DNA of 64,000 nt from Carcharhinus amblyrhynchos (Eukaryota), in the NCBI GenBank assembly GCA_965287045.1, contig OZ336903.1, positions 868,001 through 932,000 of the forward strand, read 5' to 3'. Both the position numbers and the translations under genes were made by a program. A model generated the notes under the pieces. It made no database searches. It was not told the origin of the DNA and worked only from the letters and a program-made list of their open reading frames with translations. Below, piece by piece: positions 11,903-34,171 of this stretch. The stretch's first letter is position 1, and every line of letters begins with the position of its first letter.

Positions 11903-11949
11903 TCATATGTCTGAGGACGTCACATCCTGTATTTGTTGATGTCGATGAT
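11903..11949 (-). CDS. SRCR receptor exon 15, terminal (DHRHQQIQDVTSSDI*)
   Basis: Strong acceptor ttttattttaccgtttcAG, TGA at 11905-11903, AATAAA hexamers downstream. Confidence 0.65.
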
Positions 11950-12919
11950 CTGAAACGGTAAAATAAAAATATATAAGAATTCCAACGATTTCCACAATCA
12001 GGTCAACACTTTAAAAGTACTTGTGTTATATTCCAGTTCAACTGTCAGTTTCTTTCTATCAAATCCACACTGCACATTCTCTCTGATACTTTCAATGTAA
12101 TGTACCACTGAAAATACTGCAGGAAATCACAAAGCAGAAACCATGTGGGACAGGTCGCATCCCTATACTGCGGCCCTCCCATTGGAAAATGTCATAAAGT
12201 ACGGTTTAACATTATAATGTATACTTCGGAGATGAATGGTCGCTGCCCAATGGTGGTTAAGAGCCCGTGCGTATGCCATAGACAGCATTATTTTTCACAG
12301 CTGTCATAAAAGGAACGCATAAGACGGGATTAATGCGGATCTCGTGAGTACTGTGGGGGTAAAGAAACTTTTCCTGAAACTTGGGCTGAAAATATCTGTT
12401 TTGTTTCACACAATTCGCGGCAGGAACTCAAACCAAATGCCAAATTATTATTTGATTGGCTGGAATTCACTTCAAACCAGAGCGATTATATTCCACACAA
12501 GAGGGCGGGAGGCTGCAGTAATATTCGGAAGTGATAATCAACTCAGAATGTTCTCTGAGCATTGGGATTCCATGAAGGACATCAGAATGTGACCGGGATT
12601 TCCTGGTAATATCCATGAAATTCCAACTTTCAACCTGAAGTCAAGTGTGTTCCTTAAATTAGTGATCAACTAAACATTGAACTTTTGATGGGGTGAATTT
12701 TAATGGTAGGTTGAAAACAAGTTTTCACAGCCCCTCAGCTGGAACTAGTTCATTAGAAAGCAGGATTAATGTAGCTTCAGAAGCTATGGGTCAAAAACAG
12801 AAAGCTCCTTCACTGTGACCTTGTCTGTAGCTTCCTGAAACATGGAGTCACAAGGACTGAGCTTGATGGAATGATGTCATTTAACTTAAAGGTTAATTTC
12901 AATCCAAATGTCTAATGTA

Positions 12920-13395
12920 AAGGGTAATTTAAATCTAAATGATGATTACAAGCATGCGGGGATAATTTTAGGAGGAAAGTCTAAATAGTTTTGCGCTACG
13001 TGCATTTGGTATTCAGAAGAATGAGAGGTGATCTCATTGAAACATAGGATTGTAATGGGGATTGACAAGGTAAACGCTGAGAGGATGCCGTCCCCATTAA
13101 AGATTCTAGCGCCAGACTGAGGAGTCTCAGTATTAAGGGACACCAACATAAGACTGAAATTTACAGGATTTTCTCCTCTGAGTGGGTGGTGAATCTTGGC
13201 ACAGAGAGCTGTGGAGACAGAGTCCCTGTGCACAGTTAAGGCTGAGATAGGCAGATTGTTGATGAATAAATGAATCAAGGGTGACGGGGAAGGGGGAAGA
13301 GAGTCAATATGAAGAATGTCTGATCAGTCATGATCCGGTGAAGGAGTGAACCAGTCTCGAGGGGCTGAACGGCCTAAGCATGTTGCAATTTCTTA
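12920..13395 (+). mobile_element. CR1-type LINE 3' fragment
   Basis: agaatgagaggtgatctcattgaaac (RGDLIE) and typical 3' UTR. Confidence 0.75.
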
Positions 13396-13461
13396 TTAAA
13401 TTATTTTATACTGATCCCAATCGACATTCTACGAAGCGGAACAATGAATGATTTATCTCAC

Positions 13462-13593
13462 CCAGAGTGCCGCCGTCACCGCTAGAACTCTCCGAAGTGA
13501 AGATACCGTCAGGGCTCTGGTTCAGCAGCAAGTGCCCACTCTGGGAGTCAATGGTTTCAGTCTCAGCGTCGTCATAGTCTGTCAAAGCAGGAG
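13462..13593 (-). CDS. SRCR receptor exon 14, cytoplasmic (PALTDYDDAETETIDSQ...GGTL)
   Basis: In-frame acceptor at 13593 (alternative at 13578), donor G|GTGAGA; DYDDAE motif. Confidence 0.7.
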
Positions 13594-14157
13594 CTTAGAG
13601 GTAATAGCATTTGATTATAGCAATATATAGCTGAGAGATAATAACAATTAATTAGTAATGAATGACAGTTAGAATCCTACCCTTAAATGTCTATTACCTC
13701 AACAATTATGGGACAGAAAGAAGTGTGTCTCTCATGGTGTGGAAATCACTGAGTTTGGGCGCGAAGAGTTATTAGGCTAAATTTTGTCGTAGCATTTTCA
13801 AAATTTCGTTTGATATAATAACCTTGCTAATAATTCACCAATCTCATACACCCACACACATTTCACAGCCCAAAATGGCTACTGGGAAATGCTAGAACTT
13901 TTTTTAAAAAAGTTAAAATTCTTTTTTTTTCGGAAGAAAGCAAACTTCATTTCAATTGCTGCGAAGTACCATAAAACATTGTTTCAGGCTCAGAGGTTCT
14001 GGAACTGAAATTATTCTAAAATGTCTGAGCTACTTGGCGCTGTCATTTCATGGTGTGCACGTCATTATGTACACGTTTGGAGATTTCAGAAGCTATTTCA
14101 GATATTACAGAGTGAGAAGACTCGGAAGGAAATGGTAGGATGTGAACTTCGACCTAC

Positions 14158-30629: not shown

Positions 30630-30835
30630 AGCATATTGCGTGGAATCGGCTGCCGGCGGTGGTGGTGGAGACAGATTCGATCGGGTCTTTTTAAAGACTT
30701 TTGGATGAGTACGTGGGACGTTGTAAGATAAAGGGTTATAGGTAAACCGAGTAGATAGAGATATGTTCGGTGCAACTTGAAGGCTGAAGGGCCTGTTTGT
30801 GCTGCAGTTTCTATATGTTTTGTGTTCTATGTCCT
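30630..30835 (+). mobile_element. CR1/HER1-type LINE 3' tail
   Basis: Reverse-complement similarity to the tail at 2468-2660. Confidence 0.7.
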
Positions 30836-31589
30836 GTGCTTAATATGCCAGTTAAAGCAATGTTGGTCCCATTTAGATTTAATATTTAACCTTTCAGCAT
30901 TTACAGCCGTGTCCACTCCTCCAACTCAAAATAATTTGTTTATCATATGGCAGCTCACTGTACCACAGGACGAGCATACAGCTCTTCCACTGAGAAATAT
31001 CTATTCCACATCTGTTTACGAATTCTACTGAAAATACCCAGAATTTTTACTGGGATTTCGGAAGTGGTTAATTCACGTTGATTCCTTTCGGCAATCTATG
31101 CTATTCTAACCGTGGCGGCGATCTACACCCAGACCGCCCTGCTCAGCTCGAATTTCATGTCATGTCTGTTCCGTCTGTACGACAGACCCAGTGGAACATT
31201 TAATTCTACCTGCTTATGTGTCTGAGTTGGATTATGTGGTTAATCTAAGGTTCTTATGCACTTGCTATTTTTTTTTGGAGACGAATGACCTGAAAATGCA
31301 ACTTTGCTCAAAGTATATTCTGATAAGTTTCTACAAGTTAAGTCAACGATTTCAACATTCACTTCATGACTACGAGCTAACTGCCGATTCAGTAGCAACA
31401 AAAAAAACGTAATGAGATGAGGGTATTGAGCACATGCTTTATTGCATCACAACATAAAGTTGTTCTGGTTTGTTTTACAACACATGTTCTTACAAGCAAC
31501 TGCAAAGTCCAAACAGTATTTTTAAGAATTTATTTCGCGGACTCTCGGTCCTTTACTGTGTGAAGTGTTTGATAACAGTAATGGGGCGC

Positions 31590-32575
31590 TCCTAGAACAT
31601 AGAACATTACAGCGCAGTACAGGCCTTTCGGCCGGCGATGTTGCGCCGACCAGTGGAACCAATCTAATGACCCTCTAACCTAAACTATTCCAATGTTATC
31701 CATATGCCTATCCACTGACCATTTGAACGCCCTTAAAGTTGGCGAGTCCGCAACTGCTGCAGGCAGGGCTTCCACGCCCTTACTAACCTCTGAGTAAAGA
31801 ACCTACCTCTGACATCCACCCTATAATTACCACCCCTTAATTTAAGGCTATGTCCCGTCGTGTTAGCCGTCAGCATCCGAGGAAAAAGGCTCTCACTATC
31901 CACTCTATCTAACCCGCTGATCATTTTGTATGCCTCAATTAGGTCACCTCTTGACCTTCTTCTTTCTAACGAAAATAACCTCAAGTCCCTCAGCCTTTCC
32001 TCATGAGACAAAGAATAAAGAACAAAGTACAAAGCAGCTCGGGAAACAGGCCCTTCGGCCCAACGAGCCCGCGCCGCCATTTTAACACGACCAGTCCCCA
32101 CCCCCCCCCCTCCACCCATGACCCTTATCTATTTTTTTATGGCCATCCACATTGTGGGAAACTAATTTAGGGAGAATTTATTACTTCCAGTCAGCCTAAT
32201 AGCACATCTTTGGGGTGTGGGAGGAAACCCGAGCACCCGGAGAAAACCCACGCAAACACGGGGAGAATGCGCAAACTCCCACAGACACCGGCCCAAATCC
32301 ATGTGTCTGCACAGCAAACAATGATAGTCACTGAGCTGTCGTGACCTTCCCACCACACCAGGGAACATGCTGGTTAACCTCCTCTGCACCCTTTCCAATG
32401 CCTCCACATCCTTCTTACAATGCGGCGACCAGAGCTATACACAATACTCCAAGAGCGGCTGCACCACAGTTTTGCACAATTGCAACATGACCTTACGGCT
32501 CCGAAATGCATTCCCTCTACCACTAAAAGCTAACACACCGTACGCCACCTTCACAACGTTACCAACCTGGGTGTC
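31590..32575 (-). mobile_element. CR1-type LINE 3' end interrupted by a nested LINE tail plus SINE (about 32006-32340)
   Basis: ORFs FSLERRRSRGDLIEAYKM and EALERVQRRLTSM flank an insert holding a (ACAAAGA)n-tailed element and an HE1-like SINE. Confidence 0.8.
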
Positions 32576-34125
32576 AATCAGTTAAATCTATCAGTTAACC
32601 AGCATTTTCAGTGAAATTGGGATGAATAACTATAACCAAAGTTGGGAACCGAGTGAAAATGAACCAAATCAACAACTTAAATCGGAACAAAACTACTTGG
32701 CCTGTAGAAGGAGATGAAAGAACAGATCTCGACCTGCCGCAGAAAATGGCATGAGACACAGAGAACGTGAAAGCGTGAAATACTTTTGAGAAAAAAAAAC
32801 TGAAAAAAAAAAGTGCTGCATAGAACTTAACACATTCTGGTAATATTCCGGGAGGAGATATGAGGCAATTGAGCAACAAACATCACAAAGCAAATCACTC
32901 ATATTTAGCAAATTACATTATCAACATAACAAGATAAATATTTTCTTCATATTATTGAAATTAATTAATGACATTATTAATTACAATTCATATTAATGTT
33001 TTAATATGCATTATTCACAGACCTAGCCCAACACTCTGAGGCTGAGGCACCTATTTTAATGTTATATTTGTTTTCTCTCTACACCGGGTTCAGACAGAAA
33101 ATATACGGAGAAATGTCAAGAGAAATATGTGTGGACGGTCCTCACCAGAATTCCTGCATTTTCAAACACAATGAGTTGGCTTTAACTGAAACTACTTTTC
33201 ATCAGATTCTAACAGCGACTGCTCTCATTTATACCAACACAAATCAAGTAATCCGAATAGAGGTCTCACAGTAATATGTTGTGCATTCAGAAGTGCGGCA
33301 TTTCCATTCAATTTTGTATTTAAATTTCAGGTTGCCGTAAGTCTCGGCCGAGAAATTAAAAACATGCATTAATCAGATGTTCTATATTCTCAACATATTT
33401 GAAAATAAATATGTTAAAAAGAAACGAGGAATCAAAATTATTCACCAAATGAAACTTCTGCTACTTAAATTCCCAATTCCAACACGCACTTCATAACAAC
33501 GAAGGAAACATTTGGAAAGATTAGAGTTTTTCCTTAAGTGGAGCGGAGAATCCTAAACCCTGCTAAACAAAACACGTATTTTTCCAGACTTAGATTTGAC
33601 AGTACATTTTGATTTTCAACTCCAATTCATTTTTTTTTTCTGCACAAGAATGTCAGGTAGACGGCGAGTAAATACAACTTCTGTTGGGCACTTGTGGCCT
33701 CAGAGCAATATTCGGCCAATATCTCAGGCCCCTCGTCCCAAAGTGACTGTGCCGAGTGGGATAAAACCAATTCAGTCTAACCCCACTAGCCTGTTCTTGG
33801 CTCCTTTGAGCGTTACAATACTTCAAACGCATAAGCAAGTATATTTTCAATGTGCTGAGCACTTCTTCAACCTCCAGCTTTTCAGACACTGAACTCGCCT
33901 CCTCTCATTGTAAATTGTTGTACATTAATATCCCATTACCTCCAGATGGCACTTATTATTCAAATCATCAACTTTCCCTTACATCTGTTACCAAAATTTT
34001 TATGATGAAATCCCTCTCTCTAAGTATATATACATAATATGTATTTACACATATACACACGCTAAAACATTACGTCAGTGAATTCTCAACAGACATCAGG
34101 ATACTTTCAATCAATAATAACTCAC

Positions 34126-34171
34126 AGTTGAGAAGCTGCAATGCAATTAGAGTCAGGAAGGAGCGCAGCAT
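34126..34171 (-). CDS. SRCR receptor (CD163/WC1-like) exon 1, signal peptide MLRSFLTLIALQLLN
   Basis: ATG at 34171, hydrophobic leader, 46 nt phase 1, donor T|GTGAGT. Confidence 0.7.

Follow-up and report, generated by a model that had tools for sequence, protein, structure and literature searches.

A six-SRCR-domain receptor gene of the CD163/WC1/SCART1 family with a WC1-like tyrosine tail in the shark Carcharhinus amblyrhynchos

The genome of the shark Carcharhinus amblyrhynchos carries, on the minus strand of the 64,000-nucleotide stretch analyzed here (the window; assembly GCA_965287045.1, contig OZ336903.1, positions 868,001 to 932,000, numbered from 1 at its first letter), a gene with six SRCR domains. 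The locus raises the question of whether such a gene encodes an agglutinin like DMBT1 or a signaling receptor. Most relatives among the 120 matches listed in our homolog search bear the name DMBT1-like, as a first-pass annotation made from the sequence alone had expected of automated naming; that annotation itself favored a receptor closer to WC1 and SCART1. We show here that the gene is intact and real and that its product is a type I membrane receptor with six SRCR domains. Sequence comparison places it in the CD163/WC1/SCART1 family, with a WC1/SCART1 hybrid layout and not a strict WC1 layout. Papers are cited by PMC number.

Splice sites read from the sequence, together with six-frame translation, define 15 minus-strand exons between an ATG at 34171 and a stop codon ending at 11903. 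All 14 introns have GT-AG ends, all 14 lie in phase 1, and the spliced frame runs for 855 codons with no internal stop. The predicted protein consists of a leader, an 11-residue spacer, five SRCR domains, a 19-residue cysteine linker, a sixth SRCR domain, a stalk, a transmembrane segment and a tail, an architecture that the first-pass annotation had described correctly. Exon 1 (34126..34171) holds the start codon and signal peptide (residues 1-15), and exon 2 (28420..28452) is the 33-nucleotide spacer. Group B SRCR domains are encoded by one exon each, and here the six domains occupy six exons of 312-318 nucleotides: SRCR1 in exon 3 (27162..27476), SRCR2 in exon 4 (24123..24437), SRCR3 in exon 5 (22149..22463), SRCR4 in exon 6 (20523..20837), SRCR5 in exon 7 (19705..20022) and SRCR6 in exon 9 (19101..19412). 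Each of the six matches the Pfam SRCR profile at E 3e-27 or better. Their cysteine counts are 6, 8, 6, 8, 8 and 9, and group B domains are described as having 6-8 (PMC2906472). The linker exon (exon 8, 19563..19619; 57 nucleotides) contains a single cysteine and sits between SRCR5 and SRCR6.

A Pro/Ser/Thr stalk (exon 10, 18934..18960) precedes the exon for the transmembrane helix and its basic stop-transfer residues (exon 11, 18651..18767; approximately residues 693-716, hydropathy 2.9). Four further exons encode a tail of 139 residues with six tyrosines, in which all four motifs named by the first-pass annotation are present: YQAIYEEID, of WC1 type, in exon 12 (17496..17603); IEYYT and SEYPAV in exon 13 (14158..14268); and DYDDAE in exon 14 (13462..13593). 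Exon 15 (11903..11949) supplies the last 15 codons and the stop, and an AATAAA lies at 11539. The stalk and final exons were assigned from the spliced model and from alignment to XP_078059601.1, a Mustelus asterias protein. An alternative, frame-keeping exon of 105 nucleotides (22633-22529) was rejected because its donor is weak, it is absent from XP_078059601.1 and a contig of run X1 joins exon 4 directly to exon 5.

XP_078059601.1 (P0055), a RefSeq predicted model, aligns from residues 1-855 of our protein to its own 1-852 with 80% identity, linker and last exon included, and it has the same leader. The AlphaFold model of this protein shows six folded domains, a transmembrane helix at 697-724 and a disordered tail, with a predicted TM-score (pTM) of 0.46 at which domain packing and a linker disulfide are not fixed. 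A search with SRCR2 gave 186 matches among 269 candidates, the closest of the 120 listed being from Mustelus asterias at 88-89% identity.

Support for the junctions came from contigs of four of the six listed sequencing runs, placed on 11600-28600 with exon 1 outside that span; three of the four come from related organisms and were guessed to be RNA. None of the listed runs is recorded as such, which carries no information on expression. Among the joints listed, 4 of the 14 junctions were seen: X1 contigs bridge exons 4 and 5 as well as exons 5 and 6, a joint at 27476/28420 with CT..AC ends links exons 2 and 3 in both X1 and X4, and a loose end of an X4 contig coincides with the 3' end of exon 1. 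The linker, transmembrane and tail junctions are absent from those joints. In one X4 contig the end of SRCR5 continues, after 35 other letters, into exon 14 (13595 / 19703), so that SRCR6 and the transmembrane exon are missing; the contig possibly derives from a secreted paralog, its short side being only 24 letters.

Domains of the CD163 family are lettered by class, such that WC1 reads a-b-c-d-e-d-b-c-d-e-d', SCART1 reads m-l-b-c-n-d-e-d' and CD163A reads h-i-j-k-b-c-d-e-d' (Herzig et al. 2010, PMC2906472). Reference domains from camel CD163, camel and bat SCART1 and sheep WC1.1 (P0178) were labeled by position; buffalo and peccary proteins were dropped as WC1 references, being without domain a or DMBT1-like, and the sheep protein was used instead. 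A quick tree of 145 domains grouped SRCR1 with a (Shimodaira-Hasegawa (SH) support 90), SRCR2 with b/c (92), SRCR3 with n (96), SRCR5 with e (96) and SRCR6 with d' (94). Removal of 46 long-branched or redundant rows left 99 for a careful mixture-model tree, which placed SRCR2 with b/c (99/98), SRCR3 with n domains of SCART1, ostrich, turtle and gar (100/97) and SRCR5 with e (99/97). Because the slowly evolving d class swamps raw best-hit classing, we relied on these trees and on amniote-only profiles whose scores were double-centered (row and column means removed). The centered profiles read SRCR1-6 as a, c/b, n, d, e and d' in order, and three other elasmobranch proteins repeated this order, except that d and d' changed places or tied in some of them. 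When all shark domains were constrained to form one clade with DMBT1, the tree was rejected by the approximately unbiased (AU) test (p-AU 0.00025; 58 rows).

The domains that the careful tree does not place can be classed by other features. SRCR1 is without Cys2, Cys7 and most cation-site residues, as is sheep WC1 domain a, and a constraint joining shark domain 1 to WC1 a is not rejected (AU p 0.64), its tree placement with that domain being unstable. SRCR3 is also without Cys2 and Cys7. The best profile class of SRCR4 is d, and that of SRCR6, which has the ninth cysteine, is d'; the best PDB stretch for the latter is CD163 929-1028. SRCR4-6 retain 5-6 of the 6 cation-site residues (sites from PMC7043408). 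No domain of the window groups with m or l in the quick tree, and there is no h, i, j or k domain. The layout thus appears to be a-(b/c)-n-d-e-Cys linker-d', in which b/c, n and e are firm by trees and a, d and d' come from profiles, cysteine pattern and position. Since SRCR3 is of n type, and n is diagnostic of CD163c-alpha, we regard the gene as a hybrid.

The cysteine linker between e and d' recurs in XP_078059601.1, in WC1 and SCART1 and in the ostrich and turtle proteins; in CD163A the linker lies between c and d. To follow this and other features we counted them in 24 elasmobranch proteins with transmembrane segment and tail, the window protein included, a set picked from tail matches and hence biased. 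In 20 of the 24, the linker cysteine is paired with exactly one extra cysteine, whose position varies: certain sharks have it in d', others in d, as do rays. This suggests that the two cysteines form a disulfide staple within a compact base, a contact that a model of such pTM cannot confirm.

Seven-domain proteins are the majority among the elasmobranch relatives. Within intron 3 lies, at 24599..24667 on the minus strand, a stretch that is likely the degraded 3' part of a b-type SRCR exon since lost (it matches Heptranchias domain 2 by tblastn at E 1.5e-4; its profile score is weak, independent E-value 0.17), and the six-domain gene was likely derived from the seven-domain form by loss of that exon. 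In Mustelus there are at least 25 proteins of the family, isoforms and fragments included, 18 of them with transmembrane segment and tail. Ten seven-domain models on seven scaffolds are on average 88% identical in domain 1 and 93-99% identical in the others. Domain 1 is likewise the most variable in cattle WC1 (PMC2681482), so that the WC1 pattern of a multigene array with a most variable first domain is found in the Mustelus models. Gar and bichir proteins have a related b-b/c-n-d-e cassette. No holocephalan member with the same layout was among the matches listed in our searches, which is not evidence of absence.

The stalk, transmembrane segment and tail were matched in 33 of the 120 listed proteins of the SRCR2 search, 32 from elasmobranchs and one from a turtle. 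A YEEI-type motif, or a one-residue variant, is present in 24/24 elasmobranch tails, a YY motif in 19/24 (and in the turtle), and YDD[AVI] in 13/24, some shark paralogs having YDDI or YDDV. In 20,000 shuffles of the tail, DYDD[AVIL]-like matches arose by chance in 0.3%, YEEI-like matches in 3% and matches to the immunoreceptor tyrosine-based inhibitory motif (ITIM) in 27%. SEYPAV fits the ITIM consensus, (S/I/V/L)xYxx(I/V/L), and had been singled out as such in the first-pass annotation, but a SEYP-type ITIM occurs at this site in only 4/24 tails, those of the window and three Mustelus proteins. An inhibitory ITIM would seem to lie outside the conserved design. The YEEI motif, on the other hand, conforms to the WC1 tail motif, defined as Y-(Q/E)-(D/C/E)-(I/L) (PMC2906472), and aligns to the WC1 YEEL block. 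YDDA and YDD(V/I) occur in the WC1 tails of sheep and goat. The four tail exons, compared by number, are within the WC1 range of 4-6 and equal the four of the type I bovine tail (PMC2681482).

Scored with a profile of the shark tails, turtle tails reached 35-45 bits and a single reindeer WC1-like tail 19, ostrich tails did not exceed 12, and the best of 2,900 shuffled decoys stood at 9.7. A mammalian WC1 tail profile scored two turtle tails at 49-56. Profile-profile comparison aligned shark tails with turtle and ostrich tails over 93 columns (probability 95.6%, E 1e-8), whereas SCART1, CD163A (score 15.6) and two control sets remained at noise. On these alignments, the shark tail is homologous to the turtle and ostrich WC1-like tails, and its link to ruminant WC1 appears real but mostly transitive, via reptiles. 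A tail-only homolog search gave 9 matches among 1,411 candidates, all sharks, its word index having missed known relatives, and an ESM Atlas search with the tail returned only scores of 0.80 or less.

Among known systems, the gene most resembles the chicken WC1/CD163c-alpha hybrids (GgCD163_1 and _8), which combine a and n domains (PMC2906472), the ostrich 'antigen WC1.1-like' protein XP_068779182.1 and turtle CAM2097429.1. All have an a-like N-terminal domain followed by a (b/c)-n-d-e-d' cassette, a cysteine linker before d', a transmembrane segment and a tail in which YE(E/Q)I, YY (turtle) and YDD keep their order. The shark gene differs in having one b/c domain instead of two, nearer to b than to c, and a shorter tail with one YDD; what the bird and turtle proteins do is likewise an extrapolation. 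Ruminant WC1 shares the six-cysteine a-like first domain, the e-linker-d' arrangement, YEEL-type and YDD motifs, the four-exon tail of type I and the multigene array, but it has no n domain, has a linker between c and d and comprises 11 domains in its archetype, and its tail similarity is confined to the YEEI block. SCART1 (CD163c-alpha) shares the n-d-e-Cys linker-d' cassette and a YEDI-type motif. It has m and l domains, which are absent from the window gene, a tail of two exons including the transmembrane segment, and one or two genes in non-artiodactyl eutherians.

We consider it reasonably probable (about 0.6) that the receptor, like ruminant WC1, is a germline-encoded co-receptor for pattern recognition and is carried by lymphocytes, most likely T cells of gamma-delta type. 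By analogy with WC1, variable outer domains would bind microbial surfaces (PMC2906472; PMC8356672), and the cation-site domains d and d' would form, with the linker cysteine, a stable base. The receptor would then co-cluster with the antigen receptor, and Src-family kinases would phosphorylate YEEI and raise activation (PMC2906472, PMC8356672), to which the YY and YDD sites may add further SH2 docking. In WC1, phosphorylation of YEEL is required for T-cell potentiation (PMC2906472). Cod T cells with putative T-cell receptor (TCR) gamma/delta express a CD163-like SRCR gene (PMC9276791).

Several observations weigh against this reading. SRCR1, SRCR4 and SRCR6 have no placement in the careful tree, where SRCR1 falls apart from WC1 a, and three single-domain AU tests with DMBT1 were not significant (p 0.11-0.38; 58 rows), from which we take the signal in 105 columns to be limited. 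The cysteine loss common to SRCR1 and WC1 a may be convergent, the n domain being second-best to the a profile. Shark tails score 11 bits or less with the mammalian WC1 tail profile, and the direct link between the two tails is a 16-column YEEI block only (score 29, against a maximum of 16 in 40 shuffles). Some of the Mustelus models may be haplotype duplicates, and a single 90% cluster accounts for most of them. A role on lymphocytes would moreover be an argument by analogy with WC1, and the CD163 family includes the macrophage receptor CD163A.

It is this last receptor that provides the alternative most deserving of attention, though we think it unlikely: a scavenger receptor of the same family on macrophages or granulocytes, with tyrosine motifs serving endocytosis or myeloid Src/Syk signaling instead of TCR co-stimulation. 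CD163A (M130) is the top PDB sequence match, has the same type I topology and shares the b/c, d, e and d' classes; the cation sites are retained in SRCR4-6, YEEI and YDD are readable as YxxPhi sorting signals, and a run of AP-1, ETS and GATA-like sites, not lineage-specific, lies upstream. However, the window gene is without the h-i-j-k arm, whose k domain is diagnostic and which binds haptoglobin-hemoglobin, and has an n domain that CD163A is without. The YREM tail of CD163A is unrelated, and the shark tail is instead of the WC1 type, found in cattle on gamma-delta T cells (PMC2906472). A dual receptor like CD6, engaging SLP-76 through YDD, a phosphatase through the ITIM and a host ligand outside, is highly improbable. 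CD6, also a group B type I receptor, carries YDD distally in its tail, and DYDDAE resembles its pY662 peptide DDpYDDISAA, which binds SLP-76 (PMC5440646). YDDI or YDDV occurs in some shark paralogs; SEYPAV could be read as the inhibitory half. Yet CD6 has three SRCR domains against six of CD163-family class here, and it uses a YxN site for GADS beside YDDI (PMC5440646), of which there is none among the six tail tyrosines. The comparison rests on domain count, motifs and PDB matches. Since WC1 tails themselves carry YDD, CD6 is not needed to explain that motif, and the CD6 likeness advanced in the first-pass annotation found no support, nor, given its scarcity and chance frequency, did the ITIM.

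Least probable of all is a mucosal or epithelial agglutinin like DMBT1, mainly secreted or shed, in which the tail would be secondary. DMBT1 is a secreted protein of near-identical group B SRCR repeats with CUB and ZP domains. Beyond the database names, such a reading could draw on the raw profile score of SRCR1, equal for DMBT1 and a at 137 bits, on a VEVLxxxxW motif in SRCR2, on RefSeq isoforms of relatives without a transmembrane segment and on the X4 contig that joins SRCR5 to exon 14. The window gene, in contrast, has no CUB or ZP exon, its domains are non-identical and in fixed order, the joint DMBT1 clade was rejected, and the protein is membrane-anchored with a signaling-type tail whose tyrosine motifs are kept across sharks and rays. 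VEVLxxxxW is in any case buried in the fold and is not a validated binding site (PMC7043408). These data uphold the preference of the first-pass annotation for WC1 and SCART1 over DMBT1.

The family is already present in RefSeq under the names DMBT1-like or M130-like; what appears to be new is the extension of WC1/SCART1-type receptors to cartilaginous fish, such co-receptors having previously been traced to chicken and platypus (PMC2906472). Among the papers listed in our searches, none places shark genes in the CD163/WC1 family, passages of PMC6238376, PMC5949365 and PMC3511184 included, and an earlier notice is possible since most subscription literature and PMC6179929, which deals with haptoglobin and CD163 of cartilaginous fish, lay outside the search. 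If sharks have an array of this domain grammar and tail, the origin of WC1-type receptors would shift to the cartilaginous-fish split, ~450 million years ago (date from PMC6238376). We tentatively suggest, at somewhat less than even odds, that a WC1-type array was already present in the last common ancestor of jawed vertebrates: multiple copies of an a-b-c-n-d-e-d' receptor whose outer domain was diversifying and whose tail read YEEI-YY-YDD, marking and co-stimulating T cells of the gamma-delta (or NAR-TCR) kind. CD163A, SCART1 and ruminant WC1 would then be derived trimmings, and the array would persist in sharks, where it goes by the false name DMBT1-like. The receptor is a candidate marker for gamma-delta or NAR-TCR T cells of sharks and a candidate co-receptor on their surface, and many elasmobranch DMBT1-like names hide receptors of signaling type.

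Other features surround the gene. On the minus strand at 34428-34445, approximately 270 nucleotides upstream of the start codon, are the adjacent, putative AP-1, ETS and GATA-like sites, and further upstream a tandem array (37225-38331) has ~26 copies of a 43-bp unit. Within intron 1, a short minus-strand stretch (29505-29552) is used as coding by a chimeric Mustelus model, probably an annotation artifact, and an open frame (31733-32128, minus strand) reads like what we take to be the end of the reverse-transcriptase region of a long interspersed element (LINE). Two intronic copies of a dispersed repeat (15227-15416 and 25745-25934), 93% identical and very deep in all placed runs, are probably a short interspersed element (SINE). 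Three long exons of rhodopsin-family G protein-coupled receptors (GPCRs) are also present, at 6412-7341 (+), 45475-46380 (-) and 61775-62728 (+), with mutual identity of 40-61%; the best PDB match of the last is GPR139. The Mustelus model P0158 is a fusion of such a GPCR with an SRCR gene of the CD163/WC1-type family, and the GPCR and SRCR arrays are therefore likely neighbors in Mustelus too.

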